From the NCBI GenBank assembly GCA_030390025.1, contig CM059431.1, positions 135,534,001 to 135,598,000 of the forward strand: DNA of 64,000 nucleotides. Reading direction: 5' to 3'. The translations under genes were made by a program, and so were the position numbers. The stretch's first letter is position 1. Each line of letters starts with the position of its first letter. Shown here piece by piece: positions 3,645 to 28,620 of the stretch. The DNA comes from Squalus acanthias (taxonomy: Eukaryota). The notes under the pieces were generated by a model. That model did not search any database. It had not been told where the DNA came from and saw only the letters and a list, made by a program, of their open reading frames with translations.

Positions 3645-6600
3645 TATTGAGGCAGGGTGATTGAGGGCCGGTATGTCAGCTGCAGGCTGATGAGGGGTCT
3701 GATCCCTGAGTAAGGCTGTGATCCATTAAGAATCTCTCCTTCAAAAATAATTGCACCTGGAGTGGGATACCTGGAGTGGTAGTACCTGGAGTGGGAGTAC
3801 CTGGAGTGGGAGTACCTGGAGTGGGAGTACCTGGAGTGGGAGAACCTGGAGTGGGAGTATCTGGAGTGGGAGTACCTGGAGTGGGAGTATCTGGAGCGAG
3901 AGTATCTGGAGCGGGAGTACCTGGAGTGGGAGTACCTGGAGCGAGAGTATCTGGAGCGAGAGTATCTGGAGCGAGAGTATCTGGAGTGAGAGTATCTGGA
4001 GTGGGAGTAGCTGGAGTGGGAGTACCTGGAGTGGGAGTATCTGGAGCGAGAGTATCTGGAGCGGGAGTATCTGGAGTGGGAGTATCTGGAGTGGGAGTAC
4101 CTGGAGTGAGAGTACCTGGAGTGGGAGTATCTGGAGTGGTAGTACCTGGAGTGGTAGTACCTGGAGCGGGAGTACCTGGAGCGGAAGTATCTGGAGTGGG
4201 AGTATCTGGAGCGGGAGTATCTGGAGCGGGAGTACCTGGAGTGGGAGTACCTGGAGTGGGAGTACCTGGAGTGGGAGTACCTGGAGTGGGAGTATCTGGA
4301 GTGGGAGTATCTGGAGTGGGAGTATCTGGAGTGGGAGTATCTGGAGTGGGAGTACCTGGAGTGGGAGTACCTGGAGTGGGAGTATCTGGAGTGGGAGTAC
4401 CTGGAGTGGGAGTACCTGGAGTGGGAGAACCTGGAGCGAGAGTATCTGGAGCGAGAGTATCGGGAGCGGGAGAACCTGGAGTGGGAGTATCTGGAGTGGG
4501 AGTATCTGGAGCGAGAGTATCTGGAGCGAGAGTATCTGGAGCGGGAGTAACTGGAGCGGGAGTATCTGGAGTGGGAGTATCTGGAGTGGGAGCATCTGGA
4601 GTGGGAGTATCTGGAGTGGGAGTACCTGGAGTGGTAGTACCTGGAGTGGGAGTATTTGGAGCGGGAGTATCTGGAGTGGGAGTACCTGGACTGGTAGTAC
4701 CTGGAGTGGGAGTATCTGGAGTGGGAGTATCTGGAGTGGGAGTATCTGGAGCGGGAGTACCTGGAGTGGGAGTATCTGGAGTGAGAGTACCTGGAGTGGG
4801 AGTATCTGGAGCGAGAGTACCTGGAGTGAGACTACCTGGAGTGGGAGTATCTGGAGTGGGAATATCTGGAGTGGGAGTATCTGGAGTGGGAGTATCTGGA
4901 GTGGGAGTACCTGGAGTGGTAGTACCTGGAGTGGGAGTACCTGGAGTGGGAGTATCTGGAGTGGGAGTATCTGGAGTGGGAGTACCTGGAGTGGGAGTAC
5001 CTGGAGCGGGAGTATCTGGAGCGAGAGTATCTGGAGTGGGAGTATCTGGAGTGGGAGTATCTGGAGTGGGAGTACCTGGAGTGAGAGTACCTGGAGTGGG
5101 AGTATCTGGAGTGGGAGTACCTGGAGTGGTAGTACCTGGAGTGGTAGTACCTGGAGCGGGAGTACCTGGAGCGGAAGTATCTGGAGCGGGAGTATCTGGA
5201 GCGGGAGTATCTGGAGCGGGAGTACCTGGAGTGGGAGTACCTGGAGTGGGAGTACCTGGAGTGGGAGTACCTGGAGTGGGAGTACCTGGAGTGGGAGTAT
5301 CTGGAGTGGGAGTATCTGGAGTGGGACTATCTGGAGTGGGAGTATCTGGAGTGGAAGTATCTGGAGTGGGAGTACCTGGAGTGGGAGTACCTGGAGCGGG
5401 AGTACCTGGAGTGAGAGTATCTGGAGCGAGAGTATCTGGAGCGGGAGAACCTGGAGCGGGAGTATCTGGAGTGGGAGTATCTGGAGTGGGAGTATCTGGA
5501 GTGGGAGTATCTGGAATGGGAGTACCTGGAGCGGGAGTATCTGGAGCGAGAGTATCTGGAGCGAGAGTATCTGGAGCGGGAGTACCTGGAGCGGGAGTAC
5601 CTGGAGCGGGAGTATCTGGAGTGGGAGTATCTGGAGTGGGAGCATCTGGAGTGGGAGTATCTGGAGTGGGAGTACCTGGAGTGGTAGTACCTGGAGTGGG
5701 AGTATCTGGAGCGGGAGTATCTGGAGCGGGAGTACCTGGAGTGGTAGTACCTGGAGTGGGAGTATCTGGAGTGGGAGTATCTGGAGTGGGAGTACCTGGA
5801 GCGGGAGTATCTGGAGCGGGAGTATCTGGAGCGGGAGTACCTGGAGTGGGAGTATCTGGAGCGAGAGTACCTGGAGTGAGACTACCTGGAGTGGGAGTAT
5901 CTGGAGTGGGAGTATCTGGAGTGGGAGTATCTGGAGTGGGAGTATCTGGAGTGGGAGTACCTGGAGTGGTAGTACCTGGAGTGGGAGTACCTGGAGTGGG
6001 AGTATCTGGAGTGGGAGTACCTGGAGTGGGAGTACCTGGAGTGGGAGTATCTGGAGCGAGAGTACCTGGAGTGGGAGTATCTGGAGCGAGAGTACCTGGA
6101 GTGAGACTACCTGGAGTGGGAGTATCTGGAGTGGGAATTTCTGGAGTGGGAGTATCTGGAGTGGGAGTATCTGGAGTGGGAGTACCTGGAGTGGTAGTAC
6201 CTGGAGTGGGAGTACCTGGAGTGGGAGTATCTGGAGTGGGAGTATCTGGAGTGGGAGTACCTGGAGTGGGAGTACCTGGAGCGAGAGTATCTGGAGCGGG
6301 AGTATCTGGAGTGGGAGTATCTGGAGTGGGAGTACCTGGAGTGAGAGTACCTGGAGTGGGAATATCTGGAGTGGGAGTACCTGGAGTGGTAGTACCTGGA
6401 GTGGTAGTACCTGGAGCGGGATTACCTGGAGCGGAAGTATCTGGAGCGGGAGTATCTGGAGCGGGAGTATCTGGAGCGGGAGTACCTGGAGTGGGAGTAC
6501 CTGGAGTGGGAGTACCTGGAGTGGGAGTACCTGGAGTGGGAGTATCTGGAGTGGGAGTATCTGGAGTGGGAGTATCTGGAGTGGGAGTATTTGGAGTGGG

Positions 6601-9600
6601 AGTAGCTGGAGTGGAAGTATCTGGAGTGGGAGTATCTGGAGTGGGAGTACCTGGAGTGGGAGTACCTGGAGCGGGAGTACCTGGAGCGAGAGTATCTGGA
6701 GCGAGAGTATCTGGAGTGGGAGAACCTGGAGCGGGAGTATCTGGAGTGGGAGTATCTGGAGTGGGAGTATCTGGAGTGGGAGTATCTGGAATGGGAGTAC
6801 CTGGAGCGGGAGTATCTGGAGCGAGAGTATCTGGAGCGAGAGTATCTGGAGCGGGAGTACCTGGAGCGGGAGTACCTGGAGCGGGAGTATCTGGAGTGGG
6901 AGTATCTGGAGTGGGAGCATCTGGAGTGGGAGTATCTGGAGTGGGAGTACCTGGAGTGGTAGTACCTGGAGTGGTAGTACCTGGAGTGGGAGTATCTGGA
7001 GCGGGAGTGTCTGGAGCGGGAGTACCTGGAGTGGTAGTACCTGGAGTGGGAGTATCTGGAGTGGGAGTATCTGGAGTGGGAGTACCTGGAGCGGGAGTAT
7101 CTGGAGCGGGAGTATCTGGAGCGGGAGTACCTGGAGTGGGAGTATCTGGAGCGAGAGTACCTGGAGTGAGACTACCTGGAGTGGGAGTATCTGGAGTGGG
7201 AGTATCTGGAGTGGGAGTATCTGGAGTGGGAGTATCTGGAGTGGGAGTACCTGGAGTGGTAGTACCTGGAGTGGGAGTACCTGGAGTGGGAGTATCTGGA
7301 GTGGGAGTACCTGGAGTGGGAGTACCTGGAGTGGGAGTACCTGGAGTGGTAGTACCTGGAGTGGCAGTACCTGGAGTGGGAGTACCTGGAGTGGGAGTAC
7401 CTGGAGTGGGAGTACCTGGAGTGGGAGTACCTGGAGTAGGAGTACCTGGAGTGGGAGTACCTGGAGTGGGAGTATCTGGAGTGGGAGTACCTGGAGTGGG
7501 AGTATCTGGAGTGGGAGTATCTGGAGTGGGAGTACCTGGAGTGGGAGTACCTGGAGTGGAAGTACCTGGAGTGGGAGTACCTGGAGTGGGAGTGCCTGGA
7601 GTGAGAGTACCTGGAGCGAGAGTATCTGGAGCGGGAGAACCTGGAGTGGGAGTAGCTGGAGTGGGAGTATCTGGAGTGGGAGTATCTGGAGCGAGAGTAT
7701 CTGGAGCGAGAGTATCTGGAGCGGGAGTACCTGGAGCGGGAGTACCTGGAGCGGGAGTACCTGGAGTGGGAGTATCTGGAGCGAGAGTATCTGGAGCGAG
7801 AGTATCTGGAGCGGGAGTACCTGGAGCGGGAGTACCTGGAGCGGGAGTATCTGGAGTGGGAGTATCTGGAGTTGGAGTATCTGGAGTGGGAGTATCTGGA
7901 GTGGGAGTATCTGGAGTGGGAGTATCTGGAGCGGGAGTATCTGGAGCGGGAGTACCTGGAGCGGGAGTACCTGGAGCGGGAGTATCTGGAGCGAGAGTAC
8001 CTGGAGCGGGAGTACCTGGAGCGGGAGTACCTGGAGCGGGATTATCTGGAGCGGGAGTACCTGGAGTTGGAGTATCTGGAGTGGGAGTACCTGGACTGGG
8101 AGTATTTGGAGTGTGAGTACCTGGAGTTGGAGTATCTGGAGTGGGAGTATCTGGAGTGGGAGTATCTGGAGTGGGAGTATCTGGAGTGGGAGTATCTGGA
8201 GCGAGAGTACCTGGAGCGGGAGTATCTCAAGCGGGAGTACCTAGAGCGGGAGTACCTGGAGCGAGAGTACCTGGAGCGGGAGTATCTGGAGCGGGAGTAC
8301 CTGGAGTGGGAGTATCTGGAGCGAGAGTATCTGGAGCGAGAGTATCTGGAGCGGGAGTATCTGGAGCGGGAGTACCTGGAGCGAGAGTATCTGGAGCGGG
8401 AGTATCTGGAGCGGTAGTATCTGGAGCGGGAGTATCTGGAGCGGGAGTATCTGGAGTGGGAGTATCTGCAGTGGTAGTATCTGGAGTGGGAGTATCTGCA
8501 GTGGTAGTATCTGGAGCGGGAGTACCTGGAGTGGGAGTACCTGGAGTGGGAGTACCTGGAGTGGGAGTATCTGGAGTGGGAGTACCTGGAGTGGGAGTAC
8601 CTGGAGCGGGAGTACCTGGAGTGGGAGTACCTGGAGTGGGAGTACCTGGAGTGGGAGTATCTGGAGTGGGAGTACCTGGAGCGGGAGTACCTGGAGCGAG
8701 AGTATCTGGAGCAAGAGTACCTGGAGCGGGAGTACCTGGAGCGGGAGTACCTGGAGTGGGAGTACCTGGAGTGGGAGTACCTGGAGTGGGAGTACCTGGA
8801 GTGGGAGTACCTGGAGCGGGAGTACCTGGAGTGGGAGTATCTGCAGTGGTAGTATCTGGAGCAAGAGTACCTGGAGTGGGAGTATCTGAAGTGGTAGTAT
8901 CTGGAGCAAGAGTATCTGGAGTGGGAGTACCTGGAGTGGGAGTATCTGGAGCGAGAGTATCTGGAGCGAGAGTATCTGGAGCGGGAGTACCTGGAGCGGG
9001 AGTACCTGGAGCGGGAATATCTGGAGTGGGAGTACCTGGAGTGGGAGTATCTGGAGCGAAAGTATCTGGAGCGAGAGTATCTGGAGCGGGAGTACCTGGA
9101 GCGGGAGTACCTGGAGCGGGAGTATCTGGAGTGGGAGTACATGGAGTGGGAGTACCTGGAGTGAGAGTACCTGGAGTGGGAGTACCTGGAGTGGGAGTAC
9201 ATGGAGTGGGAGTACCTGGAGTGAGAGTACCTGGAGCGAGAGTATCTGGAGCGGGAGAACCTGGAGTGGGAGTATCTAGAGTGGGAGTACCTGGACTGGG
9301 AGTATTTGGAGTGTGAGTACCTGGAGTTGGAGTATCTGGAGTGGGAGTATCTGGAGTGGGAGTATCTGGAGTGGGAGTATCTGGAGTGGGAGTATCTGGA
9401 GTGGGAGTATCTGGAGCGAGAGTACCTGGAGCGGGAGTATCTGGAGCGGGAGTACCTAGAGCGGGAGTACCTGGAGCGAGAGTACCTGGAGCGGGAGTAT
9501 CTGGAGCGGGAGTATCTGGAGCGGGAGTACCTAGAGCGGGAGTACCTGGAGCGAGAGTACCTGGAGCGAGAGTATCTGGAGCGGGAGTATCTGGAGCGGG

Positions 9601-12600
9601 AGTATCTGGAGCGGGAGTATCTGGAGCGGGAGTATCTGGAGTGGGAGTACCTGGAGTGGGAGTATCTGGAGTGGGAGTATCTGGAGTGGGAGTACCTGGA
9701 GTGGGAGTACCTGGAGTGGGAGTACCTGGAGGAGGAGTACATGGAGTGGGATTACCTGGAGTGAGAGTACCTGGAGCGAGAGTATCTGGAGCGGGAGAAC
9801 CTGGAGTGGGAGTATCTGGAGTGGGAGTACCTGGACTGGGAGTATCTGGAGCGAGAGTATCTGGAGCGAGAGTATCTGGAGCGGGAGTACCTGGAGCGGG
9901 AGTACCTGGAGCGGGAGTATCTGGAGTGGGAGTACCTGGAGTGGGAGTATCTGGAGCGAGAGTATCTGGAGCAAGAGTATCTGGAGTGGGAGTACCTGGA
10001 GCGGGAGTACCTGGAGCGGGAGTATCTGGAGTTGGAGTATCTGGAGTGGGAGTATCCGGTGTGGGAGTATCTGGAGTGGGAGTATCTGGAGTGGGAGTAT
10101 CTGGAGCGGGAGTACCTGGAGCGGGAGTACCTGGAGCGGGAGTACCTGGAGCGGGAGTACCTGGAGCGGGATTATCTGGAGTGGGAGTACCTGGAGTTGG
10201 AGTATCTGGAGTGGGAGTACCTGGACTGGGAGTATTTGGAGTGTGGGTACCTGGAGTTGGAGTATCTGGAGTGGCAGTATCTGGAGTGGGAGTATCTGGA
10301 GTGGGAGTATCTGGAGTGGGAGTATCTGGAGTGGGAGTATCTGGAGCGAGAGTACCTGGAGCGGGAGTATCTGGAGCGGGAGTACCTAGAGCGGGAGTAC
10401 CTGGAGCGAGAGTACCTGGAGCGGCAGTATCTGGAGCGGGAGTACCTGGAGCGGGAGTATCTGCAGTGGGAGTACCTGGAGCGAGAGTATCTGGAGCGGG
10501 AGTATCTGGAGCGGGAGTATCTGGAGTGGGAGTATCTGCAGTGGTAGTATCTGGAGTGGGAGTATCTGCAGTGGTAGTATCTGGAGCGGGATTACCTGGA
10601 GCGGGAGTATCTGGAGCGGGAGTATCTGGAGTGGGAGTATCTGGAGTGGGAGTACATGGAGTGGGAGTACCTGGAGCGGGAGTACCTGGAGTGGGAGTAC
10701 CTGGAGTGGGAGTATCTGGAGTGGGAGTACCTGGAGTGGGAGTACCTGGAGTGGGAGTACCTGGAGCGAGAGTATCTGGAGCAAGAGTACCTGGAGCGGG
10801 AGTACCTGGAGTGGGAGTACCTGGAGTGGGAGTACCTGGAGTGGGAGTACCTGGAGTGGGAGTATCTGCAGTGGGAGTATCTGCAGTGGTAGTATCTGGA
10901 GCAAGAGTACCTGGAGTGGGAGTAGCTGAAGTGGTAGTATCTGGAGCAAGAGTACCTGGAGTGGGAGTATCTGGAGTGGTAGTCTCTGGAGCAAGAGTAC
11001 CTGGAGTGGGAGGACCTGGAGTGGGAGTACCTAGAGTGGGAGTATCTGGAGTGGTAGTATCTTGAGCAAGAGTACCTGGAGTGGGAGTACCTGGAGTGGG
11101 AGTATCTGGAGTAGGAGTATCTGGAGTGGGAGTACCTGGACTGGGAGTATTTGGAGTGTGAGTACCTGGAGTTGGAGTATCTGGAGTGGCAGTATCTGGA
11201 GTGGGAGTATCTGGAGTGGGAGTATCTGGAGTGGGAGTATCTGGAGTGGGAGTATCTGGAGCGAGAGTACCTGGAGCGGGAGTATCTGGAGCGGGAGTAC
11301 CTAGAGCGGGAGTACCTGGAGCGAGAGTACCTGGAGCGGCAGTATCTGGAGCGGGAGTACCTGGAGCGGGAGTATCTGGAGCGGGAGTACCTGGAGCGAG
11401 AGTATCTGGAGCGGGAGTATCTGGAGCGGGAGTATCTGGAGCGGGAGTATCTGGAGTGGGAGTATCTGCAGTGGTAGTATCTGGAGTGGGAGTATCTGCA
11501 GTGGTAGTATCTGGAGCGGGATTACCTGGAGTGGGAGTACCTGGAGTGGGAGTACCTGGAGTGGGAGTACCTGGAGTGGGAGTACCTGGAGCGGGAGTAC
11601 CTGGAGTGGGAGTATCTGCAGTGGTAGTATCTGGAGCAAGAGTACCTGGAGTGGGAGTATCTGAAGTGGTAGTATCTGGAGCAAGAGTATCTGGAGTGGG
11701 AGTACCTGGAGTGGGAGTATCTGGAGCGAGAGTATCTGGAGCGAGAGTATCTGGAGCGGGAGTACCTGGAGCGGGAGTACCTGGAGCGGGAATATCTGGA
11801 GTGGGAGTACCTGGAGTGGGAGTATCTGGAGCGAAAGTATCTGGAGCGAGAGTATCTGGAGCGGGAGTACCTGGAGCGGGAGTACCTGGAGCGGGAGTAT
11901 CTGGAGTGGGAGTACATGGAGTGGGAGTACCTGGAGTGAGAGTACCTGGAGTGGGAGTACCTGGAGTGGGAGTACATGGAGTGGGAGTACCTGGAGTGAG
12001 AGTACCTGGAGCGAGAGTATCTGGAGCGGGAGAACCTGGAGTGGGAGTATCTAGAGTGGGAGTACCTGGACTGGGAGTATTTGGAGTGTGAGTACCTGGA
12101 GTTGGAGTATCTGGAGTGGGAGTATCTGGAGTGGGAGTATCTGGAGTGGGAGTATCTGGAGTGGGAGTATCTGGAGCGGGAGTATCTGGAGCGAGAGTAC
12201 CTGGAGCGGGAGTATCTGGAGCGGGAGTACCTAGAGCGGGAGTACCTGGAGCGAGAGTACCTGGAGCGGGAGTATCTGGAGCGGGAGTATCTGGAGCGGG
12301 AGTACCTAGAGCGGGAGTACCTGGAGCGAGAGTACCTGGAGCGAGAGTATCTGGAGCGGGAGTATCTGGAGCGGGAGTATCTGGAGCGGGAGTACCTGGA
12401 GTGGGAGTATCTGGAGTGGGAGTATCTGGAGTGGGAGTACCTGGAGTGGGAGTACCTGGAGTGGGAGTACCTGGAGTGGGAGTACATGGAGTGGGATTAC
12501 CTGGAGTGAGAGTACCTGGAGCGAGAGTATCTGGAGCGGGAGAACCTGGAGTGGGAGTATCTGGAGTGGGAGTACCTGGACTGGGAGTATCTGGAGCGAG

Positions 12601-15600
12601 AGTATCTGGAGCGAGAGTATCTGGAGCGGGAGTACCTGGAGCGGGAGTACCTGGAGCGGGAGTATCTGGAGCGAGAGTATCTGGAGCAAGAGTATCTGGA
12701 GTGGGAGTACCTGGAGCGGGAGTACCTGGAGCGGGAGTATCTGGAGTTGGAGTATCTGGAGTGGGAGTATCCGATGTGGGAGTATCTGGAGTGGGAGTAT
12801 CTGGAGTGGGAGTATCTGGAGCGGGAGTACCTGGAGCGGGAGTACCTGGAGCGGGAGTACCTGGAGCGGGAGTACCTGGAGCGGGATTATCTGGAGTGGG
12901 AGTACCTGGAGTTGGAGTATCTGGAGTGGGAGTACCTGGACTGGGAGTATTTGGAGTGTGGGTACCTGGAGTTGGAGTATCTGGAGTGGCAGTATCTGGA
13001 GTGGGAGTATCTGGAGTGGGAGTATCTGGAGTGGGAGTATCTGGAGTGGGAGTATCTGGAGCGAGAGTACCTGGAGCGGGAGTATCTGGAGCGGGAGTAC
13101 CTAGAGCGGGAGTACCTGGAGCGAGAGTACCTGGAGCGGCAGTATCTGGAGCGGGAGTACCTGGAGCGGGAGTATCTGCAGTGGGAGTACCTGGAGCGAG
13201 AGTATCTGGAGCGGGAGTATCTGGAGCGGGAGTATCTGGAGTGGGAGTATCTGCAGTGGTAGTATCTGGAGTGGGAGTATCTGCAGTGGTAGTATCTGGA
13301 GCGGGATTACCTGGAGCGGGAGTATCTGGAGCGGGAGTATCTGGAGTGGGAGTATCTGGAGTGGGAGTACATGGAGTGGGAGTACCTGGAGCGGGAGTAC
13401 CTGGAGTGGGAGTACCTGGAGTGGGAGTATCTGGAGTGGGAGTACCTGGAGTGGGAGTACCTGGAGTGGGAGTACCTGGAGCGAGAGTATCTGGAGCAAG
13501 AGTACCTGGAGCGGGAGTACCTGGAGTGGGAGTACCTGGAGTGGGAGTACCTGGAGTGGGAGTACCTGGAGTGGGAGTATCTGCAGTGGGAGTATCTGCA
13601 GTGGTAGTATCTGGAGCAAGAGTACCTGGAGTGGGAGTATCTGGAGTGGTAGTCTCTGGAGCAAGAGTACCTGGAGTGGGAGGACCTGGAGTGGGAGTAC
13701 CTAGAGTGGGAGTATCTGGAGTGGTAGTATCTTGAGCAAGAGTACCTGGAGTGGGAGTACCTGGAGTGGGAGTATCTGGAGTAGGAGTATCTGGAGTGGG
13801 AGTACCTGGACTGGGAGTATTTGGAGTGTGAGTACCTGGAGTTGGAGTATCTGGAGTGGCAGTATCTGGAGTGGGAGTATCTGGAGTGGGAGTATCTGGA
13901 GTGGGAGTATCTGGAGTGGGAGTATCTGGAGCGAGAGTACCTGGAGCGGGAGTATCTGGAGCGGGAGTACCTAGAGCGGGAGTACCTGGAGCGAGAGTAC
14001 CTGGAGCGGCAGTATCTGGAGCGGGAGTACCTGGAGCGGGAGTATCTGGAGCGGGAGTACCTGGAGCGAGAGTATCTGGAGCGGGAGTATCTGGAGCGGG
14101 AGTATCTGGAGCGGGAGTATCTGGAGTGGGAGTATCTGCAGTGGTAGTATCTGGAGTGGGAGTATCTGCAGTGGTAGTATCTGGAGCGGGATTACCTGGA
14201 GTGGGAGTACCTGGAGTGGGAGTACCTGGAGTGGGAGTATCTGGAGTGGGAGTACATGGAGTGGGAGTACCTGGAGCGGGAGTACCTGGAGTGGGAGTAC
14301 CTGGATTGGGAGTACCTGGAGTGGGAGTATCTGGAGTGGGAGTACCTGGAGTGGGAGTACCTGGAGCGAGAGTATCTGGAGCAAGAGTACCTGGAGCGGG
14401 AGTACCTGGAGCGGGAGTACCTAGAGCGGGAGTACCTGGAGTGGGAGTACCTGGAGTGGGAGTACCTGGAGTGGGAGTACCTGGAGTGGGAGTACCTGGA
14501 GTGGGAGTACCTGGAGTGGGAGTATCTGGAGTGGGAGTATCTGCAGTGGTAGTATCTGGAGCAAGAGTACCTGGAGTGGGAGTATCTGAAGTGGTAGTAT
14601 CTGGAGCAAGAGTACCTGGAGTGGGAGTATCTGGAGTGGGAGTACCTAGAGTGGGAGTATCTGGAGTGGTAGTATCTTGAGCAAGAGTACCTGGAGTGGG
14701 AGTACCTGGAGTGGGAGTATCTGGAGTAGGAGTATCTGGAGTGGGAGTATCTGGAGTGGTAGTATCTGGAGCAAGAGTACCTGGAGTGGGAGTATCTGGA
14801 GTGGTAGTATCTGGAGCAAGAGTACCTGGAGTGGGAGTATCTGGAGCGAGAGTACCTGGAGCGGGAGTAACGGGAGCGGGAGTACCTGGAGCGGGATTAT
14901 CTGGAGCGGGAGTACCTGGAGTTGGAGTATCTGGAGTGGGAGTACCTGGACTGGGAGTATTTGGAGTGTGAGTACCTGGAGTTGGAGTATCTGGAGTGGG
15001 AGTATCTGGAGTGGGAGTATCTGGAGTGGGAGTATCTGGAGTGGGAGTATCTGGAGCGAGAGTACCTGGAGCGGGAGTATCTGGAGCGGGAGTACCTAGA
15101 GCGGGAGTACCTGGAGCGAGAGTACCTGGAGCGGGAGTATCTGGAGCGGGAGTACCTGGAGCGGGAGTATCTGGAGTGGGAGTACCTGGAGCGAGAGTAT
15201 CTGGAGCGGGAATATCTGGAGCGGGAGTATCTGGAGCGGGCGTATCTGGAGCGGGAGTATCTGGAGTGGGAGTCTCTGCAGTGGTAGTATCTGGAGTGGG
15301 AGTATCTGCAGTGGTAGTATCTGGAGTGGGAGTACCTGGAGTGGGAGTACCTGGAGTGGGAGTATCTGGAGTGGGAGTACCTGGAGTGGGAGTACCTGGA
15401 GCGGGAGTACCTGGAGTGGGAGTACCTGGAGTGGGAGTACCTGGAGTGGGAGTATCTGGAGTGGGAGTACCTGGAGTGGGAGTACCTGGAGCGGGAGTAC
15501 CTGGAGCGAGAGTATCTGGAGCAAGAGTACCTGGAGCGGGAGTACCTGGAGCGGGAGTACCTAGAGCGGGAGTACCTGGAGCAGGAGTACCTGGAGTGGG

Positions 15601-18281
15601 AGTACCTGGAGTGGGAGTACCTGGAGTGGGAGTATCTGCAGTGGTAGTATCTGGAGCAAGAGTACCTGGAGTGGGAGTACCTGGAGTGGGAGTACCTGGA
15701 GTGGGAGTATCTGGAGTGGGAGTATCTTGAGCAAGAGTACCTGGAGTGGGAGTACCTGGAGTGGGAATATCTGGAGTAGGAGTATCTGGAGTGGGAGTAT
15801 CTGGAGTGGTAGTATCTGCAGCAAGAGTACCTGGAGTGGGAGTATCTGGAGTGGTAGTATCTGGAGCAAGAGTACCTGGAGTGGGAGTATCTGGAGTGGG
15901 AGTATCTGGAGTGGGAGTATCTGGAGTGGGAGTATCTGGAGTGGGAGTACCTGGAGTGGGAGTACGTGGAGTGGGAGTACCTGGAGTGGGAGTACCTGCA
16001 GTGCGAGTACCTGCAGTGCGAGTATCTGGAGTGGGAGTATCTGGAGTGGGAGTATCTGGAGTGGGAGTATCTGGAGTGGGAGTACATGGAGTGGGAGTAC
16101 CTGGAGCGGGAGTACCTGGAGCGGGAGTATCTGGAGTAGGAGTATCTGGAGTGGGAGTATCTGGAGTGGGAGTACATGGAGTGGGAGTATCTGGAGTGGG
16201 AGTACCTGGAGTGGGAGTATCTGGAGTAGGAGTATCTGGAGTGGGAGTACCTGGAGCGGGAGTACCTGGAGTGTGAGTACCTGGAGTGGGAGTACCTGGA
16301 GTGGGAGTACCTGGAGCGGGAGTATCTGGAGCGAGAATACCTGGAGCGAGAGTACCTGGAGCGAGAGTACCTGGAGCGAGAGTACCTGGAGCGGGAGTAT
16401 CTGGAGCGGGAGTATCTGTAGCGGGAGTATCTGGAGCGGGAGTACCTGGAGCGGGAATATCTGGAGCGGGAGTATCTGTAGCGGGAGTATCTGGAGCGGG
16501 AGTACCTGGAGCGAGAGTATCTGGAGCGGGAGTATCTGGAGCGGGAGTATCTGGAGCGGGAGTACCTGGAGCGGGAGTATCTGGAGCGGGAGTATCTGGA
16601 GCGGGAGTACCTGGAGCGGGAGTACCTGGAGTGGGAGTACCTGGAGTGGGAGTATCTGGAGTGGGATTACCTGGAGTGGGAGTATCTGGAGTGGGAGTAT
16701 CTGGAGTGGGAGTACCTGGAGTGGCAGTATCTGGAGTGGGAGTATCTGGAGCGGGAGTATCTGGAGTGGGATTACCTGGAGTGGGAGTATCTGGAGTGGG
16801 AGTATCTGGAGTGGGAGTACCTGGAGTGGGAGTATCTGGAGTGGGAGTATCTGGAGCGGGAGTATCTGGAGTGGGAGTATCTGGAGTGGGATTACCTGGA
16901 GTGGGAGTATCTGGAGTGGGATTACCTGGAGTGGGAGTATCTGGAGTGGGAGTATCTGGAGCGGGAGTATCTGGAGTGGGAGTATCTGGAGTGGGAGTAT
17001 CTGGAGTGGGAGTATCTGGAGTGGGATTACCTGGAGTGGGAGTATCTGGAGTGGGAGTATCTGGAGCGGGAGTACCTGGAGCGGGAGTACCTGGAGTGGG
17101 AGTACCTGGAGCGAGAGTACCTGGAGCGAGAGTACCTGGAGTGGGAGTACCTGGAGTGGGAGTAACTGGAGTGGGAGTCTCTGGAGTGGGATTACCTGGA
17201 GTGGGAGTATCTGGAGTGGGAGTATCTGGAGCGGGAGTACCTGGAGCGGGAGTACCTGGAGCGGGAGTATCTGGAGTGGGAGTATCTGGAGTGGGAGTAT
17301 CTGGAGTGGGAGTACCTGGAGTGGGAGTACCTGGAGTGGGAGTATCTGGAGCGGGAGTACCTGGAGCGGGAGTACCTGGAGTGGGAGTATCTGGAGTGGG
17401 AGTATCTGGAGCGGGAGTACCTGGAGTGGGAGTACCTGGAGCGGGAGTACCTGGAGCGGGAGTACCTGGAGTGGGAGTACCTGGAGCAAGAGTACCTGGA
17501 GCGGGAGTACCTGGAGTGGGAGTACCTGGAGCGGGAGTACCTGGAGTGGGAGTACCTGGAGCGGGAGTACCTGGAGCGGGAGTACCTGGAGCGGGAGTAC
17601 CTGGAGTGGGAGTACCTGGAGCGGGAGTACCTGGAGCGGGAGTACCTGGAGTGGGAGTATCTGGAGCGGGAGTACCTGGAGTGGGAGTATCTGGAGTGGG
17701 AGTATCTGGAGCGGGAGTACCTGGAGTGGGAGTATCTGGAGTGGGAGTATCTGGAGCGGGAGTACCTGGAGTGGGAGTATCTGGAGCGGGAGTATCTGGA
17801 GCGGGAGTATCTGGAGCGGGAGTATCTGGAGCGGGAGTATCTGGAGTGGGAGTACCTGGAGCGGGAGTACCTGGAGCGGGAGTACCTGGAGCGGGAGTAC
17901 CTGGAGCGGGAGTATCTGGAGTGGGAGTATCTGGAGTGGAAGTATCTGGAGCTGGAGTACCTGGAGCGGGAGTACCTGGAGCGGGAGTACCTGGAGCGGG
18001 AGTACCTGGAGCGGGAGTACCTGGAGCGGGAGTACCTGGAGTGGGAGTACCTGGAGTGGGAGTACCTGGAGCGGGAGTACCTGGAGTGGGATTTTCCCCA
18101 GCCAGGTCAACATAAAAGCTGAGTTTCAGGGGAAGTAAGGGTGAGAGAGGCTGGGAGTTGAAGAGCTAAAAGATGTGTTGTGACCTTGCTTTGTGTTATG
18201 TGCTTTAAAAAAAAAAGGTGTTTGGAACTTGGATTGATCAAGGGCTACTGTTGGTGAAAGATGGTAGGACCTTGCAACACA
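3645..18281 (+). mobile_element. Putative 5' LTR of a Gmr1-like Gypsy element, split by the 15-bp array (about 3645-3769 plus 18091-18281)
   Basis: GC content rises at about 3645 (TATTG..); taattgCACCTG precedes the array; CATAAAAG at 18111; ends ...ccttgcaACA/CA at 18279-18281. Removing the Harbinger (18283-20057) joins this end to a tRNA-Leu PBS and gag. Confidence 0.55.
3756..18090 (+). repeat. Giant minisatellite, about 955 x 15-bp units, consensus GGAGTA(C/T)CTGGAG(T/C)G
   Basis: Every 60-nt line from 3781 to 18061 starts in the same unit phase. Variation is by substitution, mainly at two C/T positions. Confidence 0.99.
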
Positions 18282-18282
18282 T

Positions 18283-20057
18283 GGGCCGCAATTTCGCCAG
18301 CCATGGCGAGTCCAGTGCTGCCGGAGCAGACAGCGACATCAAACTCCGTACCAGTCTTCATCCCGCCTCCTCCAAGCGATTTTGCCCTGATTGAGCTTGC
18401 TAAGCCCGCCCTTTGAGGTTCCCGGCCAATTAAAAGGAAGCGGGTCTGATGACGTTATCTGATGACGCGTCATCAGCTGGTTTCCTTAAAGGGGCCATGC
18501 CCACATTCATTTTGACAGTTGTGCTGTCAGTGTTCTGAAGCATTGAGGTGCTGCAAACACTGACAAGCACTGCACAAAGGTGCAAGGCTGCATCTAGGCT
18601 CTCCCATGACTCCCTCCATATGCTGATGGAGGGAGTCACAGCATGCAGGGAGGTCCTCTTCTCTTCCAATGGGCGGAAGAGACCTCCCCAAGATATCAAC
18701 GCAGCCTGGTTGCACATTGCACAGGAGGACACAAGCAGGGATGCCATCAGGAGGACCAGGCTGCAGTGACACAAACCTTTCAATGATCACGGTAGATCAC
18801 GAAACGTTACTGCCAAGCCACACTCAACCTCATCCTGCTGTGCCACTCATCACATCCCCATCACTCTGCCTTCCCTACCCTACTCCTGCACATCTTTCCT
18901 CACACCAACTTACCTTGCACCTCCACCGATCCCTCTCTATCTACGCAATCACTTCCCCATCTCACTAGCCACCCCTCACCCTCACCCTCATCCTACTGCA
19001 AGCATATCAACTAACAACACACAAGGGTAGGCACTTGGGTGTTTTAGACAATATTCATGGGAAGTTTCTGTTAATGTGCTGTCAAACATTGAAATCTTTA
19101 CTTTGAACACTTTGCATTCTTCGACAGATTTGTGTGCACCTTTGGAAGTGGCTTAATGAGTTGCAGTGAATGGTGAGACATAACGTCCCCCCCTCCCCAC
19201 AATGGTGATGAGTGTGAAAGGAATGGCTTGGACATTGTAGGGATGCTTTATGGTGCTGGTGTGGGGTGGTGTCAACCTGGTAGATCATGTGTACAGTGAA
19301 ACAAATCTGGACATGGTGAGGCCATCGTTGGTGTCCCAGGCAGCAGTGTGCTTGGGTGATGATGCACAGTGTCCGGTGCAGCATCAGGTGATTGTGGAGA
19401 AGGTTGGTGTGGATGTTGGTGCTGCTGGTGTGCCCACTGATGCTGGTTTTGGGGCTGATCGTGTTGGGATTCTGAGGACTAAAGTGAGATTCTTTCAAGG
19501 GCACCGATCCTGATGGAATAGATGGCAGGTGAGGTTGAGATGACAGAAGCGATCTGTCAATGTTGAGATAGGTTGTTCCAAGGAGGTGACAATGGATAGA
19601 GAGAATACTCCAAGCACTTCAAAAGTGCATAAAGCTCAAGAGTGGGTTCCAAATCATTAATGCTCCAGCTTCTGACATTGGAAAGTGACCAGCTGTAAAA
19701 TGGTAGCTTTTAAACCACTTTTGCAGCTGTCACCTATTCAAAGAAATGGAGAGTTGTTCAGAACCCGACATACTTACCTGGCGTGATCCCCGAGTGATGG
19801 GAACCTCATGGAAAACTTGGGAAAATGCTTTGTACCTGGGAAAATGATGATTAAATTGCTTTAAACACCCTCTTAACGAACACAATTGCATGGCCCACCG
19901 CTTAGTGCCGGGTCTGCAAAGCGCAGGCAGAGCCGGCACTAGGGAAACTCACAAGGAGGCGGGTTTTGAGAGGGATACCATCCCGCTGTCAATCTTTTGA
20001 TTTTGACAGTGGACCTGCCTCCGAACCCGTCCTCTGAGCGTTGGCAAAATTCAGCAC
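18283..20057 (+). mobile_element. Non-autonomous PIF/Harbinger element with a Myb/SANT-like remnant
   Basis: Imperfect TIRs gggccgcaatttcgcca / tggcaaaattcagcac. 18548-18790 encodes RLSHDSLHMLMEGV..EVLF..AAWLHIA..RRTRLQ*HKPFND (Myb_DNA-bind_5-like). Confidence 0.7.
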
Positions 20058-20058
20058 C

Positions 20059-20080
20059 AGGTGTCAGAAGTCGGATCGAA
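20059..20080 (+). promoter_or_regulatory. Primer-binding site complementary to tRNA-Leu(CAA)
   Basis: aGGTGTCAGAAGTcGGATCGAA versus TGGTGTCAGAAGTGGGATTCGAA (recalled tRNA-Leu-CAA complement); ATG follows at 20099. Confidence 0.7.
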
Positions 20081-20098
20081 TCTCTAACAAAGAAAAAG

Positions 20099-20610
20099 AT
20101 GAACCCAATGGAGGAAATATTGAGAGAACTGGTGCGGACTACACAAGCTCTGTAAGAGGCCCATGGGACCGCAGAAGAGAGGACCACAAAGCTCCTTGAG
20201 GTCCAGCAGGAGACCACCCGGCTACTAGTGAACCAGGTTGTCCAGAGTCTGGGAGAGATTGTGGAATTGAGACAGTGGCAGGGCCAAATGGAGGGGCTGG
20301 AATCCTCCTTCCATCCTATCCAAGCCAGTCTAATGCTGAAGAAAATTATTTGAGAATGATGTGGAGGCATACCTCAGCTTTTGAAAGATCTGTAGAGTGG
20401 GAGAGGTGGTCACAAGACCAATGGACTGGCATTGTGGCACCTTTCTTAGCGGCCGATGCTAAGAAGGCCTACTTTGACCTGTAGCCATAGGCGGCAGCCA
20501 ACTACCCACAGTTCAAGGCAGAGATCCTCACCAGGGCTGGTCAGATACCCTACATTCTCCAGGCCACGCAATCCTGGGCGACCCCCGAGTCCAAAGAATG
20601 GGACTGGATT
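20099..20610 (+). pseudogene. Gmr1-like Gypsy gag remnant, N-terminal part
   Basis: MNPMEEILRELVR...ENDVEAY/AFERSVEWERWSQDQWTGIVAPFLAADAKKAYFDL*..NYPQFKAEILTRAG matches the pre-SCAN Gag motif pattern of vertebrate Gmr1-like elements. Stops and frameshifts present. Confidence 0.75.
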
Positions 20611-23600
20611 CATAAGAACATAAGAAATAGGAGCAGGAGTAGGCCATAAGGCCCCTCAAGCCTGCTCCGCCATTCAATAAGATCATGGCTGATCATTGAC
20701 CTCAACTCCATATCCCTTGATTCCCCTAGAGTCCAAAAATCTATCTATCTCAGCCTTGAATATACTCAAAGACTCAGCATTCACAGCCCTCTGGGGCAGA
20801 GAATTCCAAGGATTCACAACCATCTGAGTGAAGAAATTCCTCCTCATCTCAGTCTTAAATGGCCTACCCCTTATCCTGAGACTATGCCCCCTAGTTCCAG
20901 ACACTCCAGCCAGGGGAAACAACCTCTCAGCATCTACCCTGCCAATCCCCTTCAGAATCTTGTATGTTTCAATGAGATCACCTCTCATTCTTCTAAACTG
21001 CAGAGAGTATAGGCCCATTCTACACAATCTCTCATCATAGGACAGCCCACTCATCCCAGGAATCAATCTCGTGAATTTTCATTGCACCGCCTCCAAGGCA
21101 AGTATATCCTTCCTTAGATAAGGAGACCAAAACTGTGCACAGTACTCCAGGTGTGGTCTCAGCAAGGCACTATATAATTGTAGCAAGAATTTCTTAGGTA
21201 GTCTTCTTTGGAAGATCAAAACCAATGCATCCACTATCTTTTCAGCTGCCTCTTTTAGAACCCTAGGATGTAGGCCGTCAGGTCCAAGGGATTTGTCGAC
21301 TTTTACTCCCATTAGTTGCTCTAGTACTTTTTCTCTACTTATATTAATTACATTAAGTTCCTCACCGTCATTAGACCCTTGGTTCCCCACCATTTTTTAT
21401 ATGCTTTTTGTGTCTTCTACTGTGAAGACAGATATAAAATAATTTGTTTAACGTTTCTGCCATTTCCTTATTCCCCATCATAATTTCTCCTGTCTCAGCC
21501 TCTAAAGGACCAACGTTTACTTTTGCTACCATTTTCCTTTTTACATACTTGTAGAACACTTACAATCTGCTTTTATATTTCTTGCTAGTTTTCTCTCATT
21601 CTATTTTTTCCCTTTTTATCAATTTTTTGGTCAACCTTTGCTGGTTTCTGAAACTCTCCCAATCCTCAGGCTTACTATTATTCTTTGCAACATTATAAGC
21701 CTCTTCTTTCAATCTAATGCTATCCTTAATTTCTTTAGTTAGCCACGGTTGGATGACTTTTCCCATGGAGTTTTTGTTTCTCAATGGAATGTATTTTTGT
21801 TGAGAATTATGAAGTATTTCTTTAAATGCTAGCCACTGCTTATCTACCGCCATACCGTTTAATATATTTTTCCAATCTACCTTAGCCAACTTGCCCCTCA
21901 TACCTATGTAATTGGCTTTATTTAAGTTTAAGGGGGAAAAATTCAGTTGGTTGCGCCTCCCGTTAGCGCCTTAAGAGGGCGCTAATGGGGCGCAAAGCAA
22001 CTAGCGCCCGGGCGCGTCAATGTTTGCGCCGCTCGCGAAATTAACTAGACATTTTGTGGCGGCGCTAAACACTATCGCCACGATCTCCTGCACCGGCAGA
22101 TCGTGACGTCAGTCGAGTGCGCAACGCCCCGGTAGCGCCCGGTGCGGATATTGAGTGGCGCCCCCTGCCTTACCGCCTGCCGCTAGGAATGACAGGTTGA
22201 GGGGAGCGTTTTGCAGTCAGGAAGGGACTGGCGGAGCGCTATTTAAAGGCGACCGCTTCCTGCCTTTTTTTGTTGGTGACATTTTTGAACCACGCATTCT
22301 GAGAGAGAGAGAGAAAGACTTCTGGAGAGATTCAACGATGTGTGAAGGAGTTTTGGGTACTGAGCAGCACTTTGCAGGTTCATTTTGACTTGCCCTTTCT
22401 TGTATCGATTTAGAAGAGACTGTGGGGGTTGCACTCTGAGCTCTTTCCCTGGTTCACTCCATTGTTCTTTCCAGCAGATTTGATGTACAGGTCTCTCCAG
22501 GCCAAGATTCAAGGCTGCAATGAGCAGGATGTGGATGGAAAGCAAGATCAACCCACCCCTTTAAGAACTGTCTGGCGCCATTGTGTCTGTGTTCCATTGC
22601 TGACTGACATCACATGGGCTTCACCAGCGCTTTGAGTTAGCGCCTCGCTCCTCGGCCTTTGCGCCTTAAGACAGATGTGTAGTGCATGATTTAGCGCTCC
22701 AATCACCTCCAGGGGCGATAAAAGTCAAGTTTGCAGTCGGAAGCGATTATTAGCGCCAGGCGCTAATCTTTGCGCCCGGCCGATAATTGCACCCCAAACG
22801 GGGCGATACTGAATTTTTCCCCCTAAGACTCTAGTTTCGGACTTTGGCAAGTCACTCTCAAAATTAATGTGAAATTCTATCATATTATGATCACTCTACC
22901 CCAGAGGATCCTTTGCTATGAAATTGCTAATTAACCCTGTCTCATTACACAGTACAAGATCTAAAATAACCTGTTCCCTGGTTGGTTCCATGACATATTG
23001 TTCTCGGATACTGTCCCGAATGCATTCCATGAACTCTTCCTCCAGACTACCTTTGCCAATTTGATTTGTTCAGTCTATATGAAGATTAAAGTCCCCCAAG
23101 ATTATTACATTACCTTTGTTGCAAGCTCCTACTAATTTTTGATTAATATTCTGTGCAATGGTATAGCTTCTGTTAGGGGGCCTGTATACTACTCCTACCA
23201 GTGTTTTCTGCCCCTTGTTATTCTTTATCTCCACCCATACTGATTGTACTTCCCGATCTTCCGAGCCAAGATCCTTTCTCGCTACTGTCCTTATGTCATC
23301 CTTTATTATCAGGGCTACGCCACCTCCTTTTCCATTCTGCCTGTCTTTTCGAAATGTCAAGTATCCTGGAACACTTAGTTCCCAACCTTGGCCAGCTTGC
23401 AACCATGTCTCTGTAATGGCTATTAGATCAAACCCATTTATCTCTATTTGTGCCACTAGTTCGTCTATCTTGTTACAAATGCTTTGTGCATTCAGATAAA
23501 GAGACTTTAATTTACATTTTTTATCATTATTCCCTGCTTTGACCTTATTCTCTGCTGCACTGCTACCATTAAACTCTCTGTCCCTTCCTGTCAAACTCTG

Positions 23601-23709
23601 CTTATTTTTACCCAAATCACTGCACTGCTCTATTGCCTTGACCTTTCTCTTTAGATTTCTAAATTTCCCTTCTCCTGACCCCTCCCCCCCTTTTTTAGTT
23701 TAAAGCCCT
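20611..23709 (-). mobile_element. CR1 LINE with an internal deletion of most of RT (about 21200), interrupted by a MITE
   Basis: APE motifs LYLNAQSI..AITETW..GDFN (23070-23615), RT C-terminus (20683-21200), (TTCTTATG)n tail at 20611; possible ATTC target duplication. Confidence 0.92.
21932..22823. mobile_element. PIF/Harbinger-type MITE, 892 bp
   Basis: Perfect 16-bp TIR GGGGGAAAAATTCAGT and TAA TSD (21929-31 / 22824-26). Confidence 0.93.
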
Positions 23710-24110
23710 ATTCTGGGCGGATAAAACACCTGGGGGGACAAAAGGGTGCTGAAAAGCGGTTAAGGGACTTATGCGTGTGGCCCATGTATCTACAAATCCT
23801 GGGAGAAACAGGAAACAAGGGGCCGATGTGATCAGTGGGGTCATGTTGCGGCACATTGACCAAACCAGAAGGTGCCCATGCAATGCAGCCCCGGGGATTC
23901 TGGGGATGCCAGCAGGGGTTACCTGAGTTGGGTAGTGAAGCTTGTAAACTATGTGGAAGCTGCTCAGCCCTTCCTAGAAACAATAAAGGTGAATGGAAAG
24001 GAGGTGATGGCACTTACTGACTCGGAGTGCAGTAAACCTAGTTTCCGTAAGTCTAGTACGGCCTTCAGGTCTCGACCACGTGGCTAAACCGGGAGTCATG
24101 TGCGTACAAT
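23710..24110 (+). pseudogene. Gypsy gag zinc knuckle and protease remnant, continuing 20099-20610
   Basis: RCDQWGHVAAH*PNQKVPMQC (degenerate CCHC), then PFLETIKVNGKEVMALTDSEC (aspartic protease LDSG-like motif). Confidence 0.72.
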
Positions 24111-27496: not shown

Positions 27497-28620
27497 TGGG
27501 GGCTGTACTGGCAGTCCCCCTTGTGCTTGACTAACTTCGAGAGAGAGGGAGTGGTGGCAGCGAAGAATTCGAGAAGATGCGCACACAGGGAGGAGGAGGA
27601 GGGCCAGGAGGCCTTACCCACCTAGGGCCTTCGGAGAGCACTTCTCGTATATCCATTCAAGCAAGGAGCAGTGTATTGGGAGTCTCCTCTTCACCAAGGA
27701 GCTGGTCACAGAACTCTGCCACCTCCTGCAACCAGACCTGCAGCCTGAGAGCAGGGTGACCACAGCTCTCCCAGTGGCAGTCAAGGTCACTATTGCCCTC
27801 AATTTCTTCACCAGCAGATCCTTCCAGTCTGCAGCAGGAGACATAGCTAACATCTCACAGTTCGCCGTCCATCGCTGCCTCTGGGACGTCACGGAGGCTC
27901 TCTACACCAGGAGAAGGGATTACATTTTCTTCTCTCTGAGCAGAGAGAAGCAGGACGAGCACACATGTGGCTTTGCCAGGATAGTGGGCTTCCCCATGGT
28001 GCAGGGCGCCATCAACTGCACACATGTGTCTTTGCAGGCACCGTATAGCAATCCTGAAGTCTTCCGTAACCACAAAGGCTACCACTCACTTAAGGTGCAG
28101 TTGGTGTGCAACCACGCCCAGTGCTTCCTGATGGTCAATGCCCGCTATCCTGGCAGCAGCCATGATGCCTTCATCCTGCATCAGTTCGGTGTGCCAGCAA
28201 CCTTCCAGCCACCACAGCAAACCCGAAGGCGGCTGCTTGGAGACAGGGGCTATCCGCTCTGCACCTGGCTCATGACTCCCCTTCGCAACCCCACCACTCG
28301 TGCCCAGCACGCATATAATGAGAGCCATGTTTCCACCAGGAGCATCATCGAGAAGACCATCGGGCTGCTGAAGCAACGGTTCTGCTGCCTTGATCGCTCG
28401 GGAGGAGCCCTCCAGTACCGGGTGTCCCATTTCGTGGTGGTCTGCTGCATGCTTCACAACTTGGTCATCATGAGGGCACAGCCCTTGCCTCCAGGGATTG
28501 CTGGGACCAGCTCAAGAGGAGGGAGAGGGAGAGGAGGAGGAGGAAGAGGAAGAGCAGGCAGCCAATCCCCCTTCTAGACAGGCTACCCGTGAATGCCTCA
28601 TCGGACTCCGATTCCAATGA
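27497..28620 (+). pseudogene. HARBI1-like DDE transposase
   Basis: ORF 27756-28577: ALNFFTSRSFQ, GFPMVQGAINCTHV (first catalytic D replaced by N), YPGSSHDAFIL, LGDRGYP, IEKTIGLLKQRF. N- and C-terminal parts are frameshifted. Confidence 0.92.

Follow-up and report, generated by a model that had tools for sequence, protein, structure and literature searches.

The window, a stretch of 64,000 nucleotides of the Squalus acanthias genome (G000:C7:135534001-135598000), contains a minisatellite that very probably grew in place, at a single locus, from a 15-bp stretch (the seed) in the 5' LTR of an old, broken retrotransposon, which by the domain order of a family copy appears to be of the Gmr1 type. 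TRF reports one array at 3757-18091 with a period of 15, 955.7 copies and 90% matches, and tiling divides it into 956 units of 15 bp and 82 unit types, spanning 14.3 kb of the plus strand (3756-18091) with nested block duplications. The first unit (3756-3769) has 14 bp and the last is incomplete; from 3770 to the end of the array the unit phase is unbroken, with no indel across 955 units. The units TCTGGAGTGGGAGTA (n = 202) and CCTGGAGTGGGAGTA (n = 198) are the commonest. Columns 1 and 8 of the unit are two-state (T/C), and the remaining columns deviate from their commonest letter by 3.4%. At columns 8-9, 352 of 955 units have a derived CpG and 29 a CA variant, perhaps a sign of decay driven by methylation.

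When the 3.7-Gb genome was searched with the exact unit pattern of the window, a search that could overlook strongly diverged arrays, all matches (386/386) fell inside this array. Long arrays of the unit with a GTA junction occur at one locus and those of the unit with a GGA junction at one duplicated locus, not at many loci. The array is a single-locus minisatellite and not a satellite DNA family. An earlier note on this DNA had seen in it the birth site of a satellite; the traceable origin in an LTR stands, the satellite family does not. An occurrence of the array at many loci with unrelated flanks, which the note had named as the case against its reading, was not observed.

The sequences on either side of the array are the two arms of one dispersed LTR family. 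The 5' arm (3648-3755, +), by position the upstream part of U3, matches the family at 79-87%, and its start aligns with the family start; the 3' arm (18092-18279, +), which holds the TATA-like CATAAAAG (18111-18118) and ends in CA at 18279, matches other copies at 77-87%. Searched alone, the left arm gave 113 candidates, of which 40 were scored (79-87% apart from a self-level match), and the right arm 151, again with 40 scored (77-87% apart from self). In 45 of 48 non-self loci (three loci were fetched twice), the two arms occur on the same strand and in order, at a spacing of mostly 16 or 31 bases, corresponding to one or two seeds. The unit is hence a stretch of the host element itself, flanked by colinear arms of that element. 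Minus the array, the window LTR consists of arms of 108 and 188 bases, or ca. 311 bp with one seed. This bears out the earlier proposal of a 14.3-kb minisatellite inside a retrotransposon LTR whose flanks recur together in many copies with TG..CA ends and an adjacent primer-binding site. The ~315-bp size and the CA end given there hold, while the limits shift to 3648, instead of 3645, and 18279.

As also described before, the array starts within a CACCTG box (3754-3759, +) and ends ca. 20 nt before the TATA-like box, with 19 bases between its end and CATAAAAG. The box is single, spans the left junction and does not recur within the array (one occurrence at the junction, none inside), so the amplified part is the G-rich stretch beside it. 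Of the proposed ~955-fold amplification of a promoter-proximal LTR motif, the amplification of the seed in place is retained, and by position, beside the TATA-like box of the family, the seed would be promoter-proximal; the CACCTG box was not amplified. The right junction is short by about 5 bases. At the left junction, a contig from a public sequencing run bridges the LTR arm and the first array units (3667-3800), and this junction is therefore not an assembly artefact. The summed contig depth of the first units versus the flank is ~1000x in run X1 and ~2000x in run X3, which does not amount to a copy number. Contigs of the public runs mismatch the window at up to four flank positions (3082, 3141, 3548 and 3645), which may be alleles or assembly errors. 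Small parts were also seen in runs X6 and X7, which are labelled as other organisms and are left out of the dating of the array. The sequencing runs listed include no RNA run and are uninformative on expression.

Behind the LTR, the remains of a dead element are found. The remainder of a primer-binding site complementary to the 3' end of tRNA-Leu(CAG) from the same genome, with one mismatch, lies at 20060-20076 (+), in line with the earlier note; the site itself is split by an insert at 18283-20056 (+, end approximate). This multi-copy, non-autonomous DNA-transposon-like insert gave 3587 candidates (40 scored, 89-93%) and has imperfect inverted ends common to other copies; a Myb-like remnant (E 0.01) lies below the Pfam cut-off, the target duplication is ambiguous and no transposase is seen in it. 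The insert is likely derived from a Harbinger element; the name given to it before (at 18283-20057) is supported only in part, by the shared ends and the weak Myb-like remnant. Elsewhere in the window, a 348-codon open frame at 27531-28577 (+) matches DDE_Tnp_4 (E 8.8e-31), a Harbinger-type transposase. The expected gag follows the primer-binding site as gag-like DNA at 20099-20610 (+), 81-84% to two-LTR or primer-bearing family copies, but it is broken, with stops in all frames. Family homology breaks off at 20609, where one or more LINE-like insertions (20611-23713, -) with RT- and endonuclease-like minus-strand frames, read by eye, split gag, and it picks up again at 23714 with the second part of gag and the start of a protease-like region, ending at 24108 (23714-24108, +), the last part of the element found. 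Pfam gave no match in the three gag/protease pieces of the window, and ARAGORN found no tRNA gene there. Neither a partner LTR nor pol was found in the window, in 10 kb upstream or in 110 kb downstream; the copy is without its 3' end, and the target duplication is known from the family.

Other copies show what kind of element this was. The family LTR is dispersed, starts with TG, ends with CA and has a length of ~315 bp. Among 37 clean-ended copies, 33 remained after removal of those with a primer site or purine tract; 14 of these carry an exact 4-bp target duplication, and 23 do so if one mismatch is allowed; shuffling gives a mean of 4.3 and a maximum of 11. The family primer site complements the 3' end of a tRNA-Leu(CAG) gene of the same genome, called by ARAGORN in two of six loci fetched. 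Matches to a tRNA-Leu 3' end recur every 1.15-1.16 kb at G000:C13:49.376-49.404 Mb and on C575, likely a tandem tRNA gene array. In the family sample, six elements have two LTRs around gag-pol, which the window copy does not; their paired LTRs differ by 9-20%, and the family is therefore old. One two-LTR copy was examined in full (L089). On one strand it holds Integrase_H2C2 at 4459 (E 4.6e-5), rve at 4749 (E 0.014), Integrase_p58_C at 6458 (E 0.0016), RVT_1 at 6880 (E 2.3e-6) and RT_RNaseH after 6950 (E 7e-21); except for RNase H, these domains score below the Pfam cut-offs because they are short, broken pieces. Integrase thus precedes reverse transcriptase and RNase H, and against the PDB the RT/RNase H region has only two matches, both Ty3 RT entries. 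By this domain order, the family would be a Gmr1-type member of Ty3/Gypsy. In another two-LTR copy (L088, 7448-8443, +), a 331-codon coiled-coil-like frame without a clear Pfam match stands in the place of pol; the replacing stretch also occurs in L093 (about 78-80%), and the two may represent a non-autonomous subfamily with captured host coding sequence.

For a census of the seed, 128 stretches were collected by searches with the arms or with a junction pattern of 20 letters, which had 97 matches, and 117 distinct LTR copies passed the anchor filter, a sample of the family in which truncated dimers are scored as one seed. One seed is present in 91 copies, two in 22 and three in one, and one copy each has 41, 367 and 956 (a looser first count, with duplicates not yet removed by coordinate, gave 81/23/1 for one, two and three seeds). 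The single seed expected from the earlier reading is thus the rule for 91 of the 117, with two seeds in 22. Units ending in GC are named U1 and units ending in GG U2. The monomers comprise 61 U2 and 8 U1; the dimers comprise 14 U1-U2, 2 U1-U1 and 3 GT-GG, in which GT replaces GC, and the trimer is a U1 trimer. A dimer with a GGA junction (GG-GG) is not found among the 22. In one of the six two-LTR elements, the two LTRs differ in seed number (two versus one). A single clade for the two-seed state was considered and rejected, as dimers do not cluster on a tree of 67 of the 117 copies (135 of 500 shuffles were as low). Most subfamily markers could not be scored, and the unconstrained LTR tree is weakly resolved, with 4 of 64 inner branches starred. 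A third family copy, at G000:C3:162474.7-162476.3 kb (L173, L124), carries a 47-bp x 35 array derived from its own 5' end.

The two other long arrays of the same 15-bp seed lie on contig C3267, with 367 units at G000:C3267:2214.7-2220.2 kb (L082, L083) and 41 units at 2438.6-2439.2 kb (L044). Both are in 3' LTRs, behind RT/RNase H-like DNA; neither a partner LTR nor pol was found for them in the stretches fetched. The copies belong to an inverted duplication of >12 kb, in which the long blocks outside the arrays agree at 96.6-98.4%; as halves of one segmental duplication they are counted as one expansion event. Nearly identical outside the arrays, they hold 367 versus 41 units, so array length changes in place, a comparison between paralogues, not individuals. 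The junction reads GTA in 902 of 955 window units and GGA in 292 of 367 and 31 of 41 units on C3267; genome-wide, the non-T junction pattern has 49 matches, all in the two C3267 arrays, and the window and C3267 types share only 3 unit types. In the LTR arms, the window copy differs from the C3267 copies by 16.6-17.7%, close to the family median of 17.8%, whereas the C3267 copies differ from each other by 2.0%. Because the junctions differ and one clade holding all three array-bearing LTRs is rejected (p-AU 0.005; 56 of 117 copies, right arm only), the expansions in the window and on C3267 are taken to have arisen independently.

These observations suggest a course of events. Its starting point is a dispersed LTR family with one or two seeds per copy, whose arms now flank the array, and the monomers, dimers and U1 trimer of the family represent intermediate states. 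A dimer offers 13-14 bases of homology, so slippage could collapse or extend it. In the window, a U1 with a C>T change would have been amplified, giving the GTA junction, and on C3267 a U2, giving GGA; as no dimer with that junction exists among the 22, the C3267 arrays may stem from a fresh monomer duplication. Inspection of the seed and its surroundings shows agreement of no more than 1-2 bases at a 15-base offset, and flanking repeats do not explain the first dimer. Long growth then left duplicated blocks. The longest block repeated exactly comprises 57 units, and 30 shuffles gave no more than 8; further duplications span about 85 and 181-185 units, with nested ones near 60. Blocks of 1.3-2.7 kb exceed what simple slippage can give and therefore suggest, by established minisatellite behaviour, unequal exchange or conversion, probably between chromatids or alleles that were out of register. 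The difference between the long duplicated blocks, 3.5-5.4%, is much smaller than that between paired LTRs (9-20%), and the blocks are much younger than the element. Growth would have followed insertion, at a time well after the family had ceased to move, and would have been neutral drift; as no partner LTR of the window insertion was found, this timing rests on the family and the C3267 pair. Overall, the likely mechanism is slippage that began at a two-copy seed, with unequal exchange afterwards; slippage and exchange are told apart by the repeat pattern alone, and the array is likely without function.

The same block structure raises the question of whether the array is real but its length or arrangement an artefact of assembly. 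Blocks of 57 and 43 units are duplicated exactly, and the support comes from assembled contigs, not from array-spanning reads. However, the 3.5-5.4% difference between long blocks, the unbroken phase without an indel over 955 units and the left junction bridged in a public run make such an artefact unlikely. Somewhat less probable still is that the expanded LTR works as a regulatory element, its amplified G-rich motif acting as an enhancer or promoter booster, as suggested for LTR10 VNTRs, either on the retained TATA-like box or on a host gene. The seed lies about 20-35 bases before a TATA-like box, where upstream promoter elements are often situated, and the TATA-like CATAAAA is kept in 74 of 117 LTR copies. 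Yet the amplification leaves out the CACCTG box, the 82 unit types show free variation, two insertions and stops disrupt the element downstream, and no host gene was identified in a search of limited depth. The upstream LTR arm is now 14.3 kb away from the TATA-like box.

The existence of three array-bearing LTRs, and the scattering of the dimer state through the family (22 of 117), which probably spread by retrotransposition, could also mean that the array itself resided in the U3 of an active element and was spread in this way, as is thought for LTR12 internal repeats. We regard this as very unlikely: two of the three belong to a single segmental duplication, the third has another junction and another LTR lineage, and 114 of 117 copies have at most three seeds. 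Insertion or copying of a pre-existing satellite from elsewhere into the LTR would account for the missing bases at the right junction and for a GTA junction in place of the usual GCA or GGA of the family, but it is extremely improbable, as the unit pattern occurs at no other locus and the unit is the family's own seed at its exact place, where 3 of 22 dimers already read GT. That the array is a mucin-like coding exon, with 1 stop in one minus-strand frame versus 11-84 in the other five, can practically be dismissed, since the open frame has no Met, both common polymorphisms alter a residue and the flanks are LTR DNA. This frame (8227-18165, -), 3312 stop-free codons of Pro/Thr-rich, PTPGT-like pentapeptides that gene predictors could miscall as a mucin, follows from the unit itself; its openness is compositional, as no common codon is one change from a stop (by inspection).

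Tentatively, the 15-bp seed may be inherently unstable, a reading we consider possible without favouring it. One genome would then hold, at one homologous position, a whole birth series (1, 2, 3, 41, 367 and 956 units), and the two long expansions, independent of each other, would each have fixed another register of the same dimer. If so, about 110 unexpanded copies could serve as controls for what triggers growth to 14 kb, a sequence change or the chromosomal place. The seed may resemble the Jeffreys minisatellite core and GC-box motifs, a likeness on which nothing here is built. A G-quadruplex was considered as the cause and rejected, as the seed lies outside the six best G4Hunter windows in both natural LTRs checked; the array has a G4Hunter mean of 0.69 and no canonical three-G pattern.

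Long single-locus minisatellites are common in this genome. Arrays of at least 300 bp are present in 13 of 122 short loci (298 kb). Enrichment of arrays in the LTR family was rejected: an estimated ~1.7 are expected in 117 LTR lengths, and 2 were found besides that of the window. The family is not enriched overall; what stands out is the use of the same 15 bases twice. Several long arrays were seen in stretches picked beside array-bearing loci, a biased choice. A 41-bp x 923 array of 37.6 kb at G000:C7:135605.7-135643.3 kb (L158, L186-L189) lies to the right of the window, beginning 7.7 kb past its end and about 54 kb from the 15-bp array; its right flank is LINE-like, and its left flank has no match among the fetched loci. 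C3267 also carries arrays of 16 bp x 500 or more (L081, 3-7950, at least 7.9 kb) and of 36 bp x 303 (L196-L197, 2341.5-2352.4 kb, 10.9 kb).

Minisatellites born from transposable elements and LTRs have already been reviewed in print, and no new process is proposed here. In a partial search of main texts, made without a query by element name, nothing was found on this LTR family or on LTR-born minisatellites in sharks. Notable are the unusually complete birth series and the replicate expansion of the same seed. Most long minisatellites are untraceable to a seed, whereas here the ancestral state persists in >100 sister LTRs; as these survive and the seed expanded twice, birth and growth can be compared against natural controls. 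With regard to the host, integrase upstream of reverse transcriptase is described as the defining order of Gmr1-like Ty3/Gypsy retrotransposons (PMC3587641; on Gmr elements see also PMC3424704 and PMC11117352). The two-LTR family copy agrees with this order and has a Ty3-like RT/RNase H; unlike these elements the window copy has lost pol, and the likeness is based on domain order and PDB matches.

According to a human survey restricted to units over 20 bp, 7,276 of 31,472 minisatellites derive from transposable elements, and Alu-derived arrays average about 2.3-2.4 units (PMC3389668); the window array, in contrast, reaches 956 units of 15 bp. For LTR12, the same source reports that copies with more units are rarer and proposes stepwise growth (PMC3389668), and in the shark family, too, loci become fewer with rising unit number. 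Human LTR10A/F contain an internal VNTR with an AP1 motif and units of 28-30 bp, variable across the subfamily and backed by enhancer data, with expansions of thousands of bases reported in tumours (PMC466953). In both cases a short U3-type stretch is repeated a variable number of times across LTR copies; here, however, 113 of 117 copies hold one or two seeds, and the shark case is known from its sequence alone. The model of Haber and Louis, as given in PMC6947457, places a duplication first, followed by slippage, conversion or unequal exchange, and needs flanking repeats of 5-10 bp. The order of duplication and then growth agrees with our proposal, but with only 1-2 matching bases at the 15-base offset, the model leaves the first duplication unexplained.

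Close parallels are single-locus minisatellites expanded inside an LTR, with two separate arrays from related LTRs, as in the mouse. The mouse Ms6-hm and Hm-2 have units of 4-5 bp, compared with 15 bp here. They lie in MaLR LTRs (PMC6947457, PMC9659126), whereas the host in the shark appears to be an LTR of the Gypsy/Gmr1 type. In squamates, independent satellite arrays are reported to have arisen repeatedly from parts of one interspersed element (PMC10702118); there the host is a SINE and the arrays occupy many loci in many species, unlike the window array, but repeated, independent births from one element appear to be common to both.
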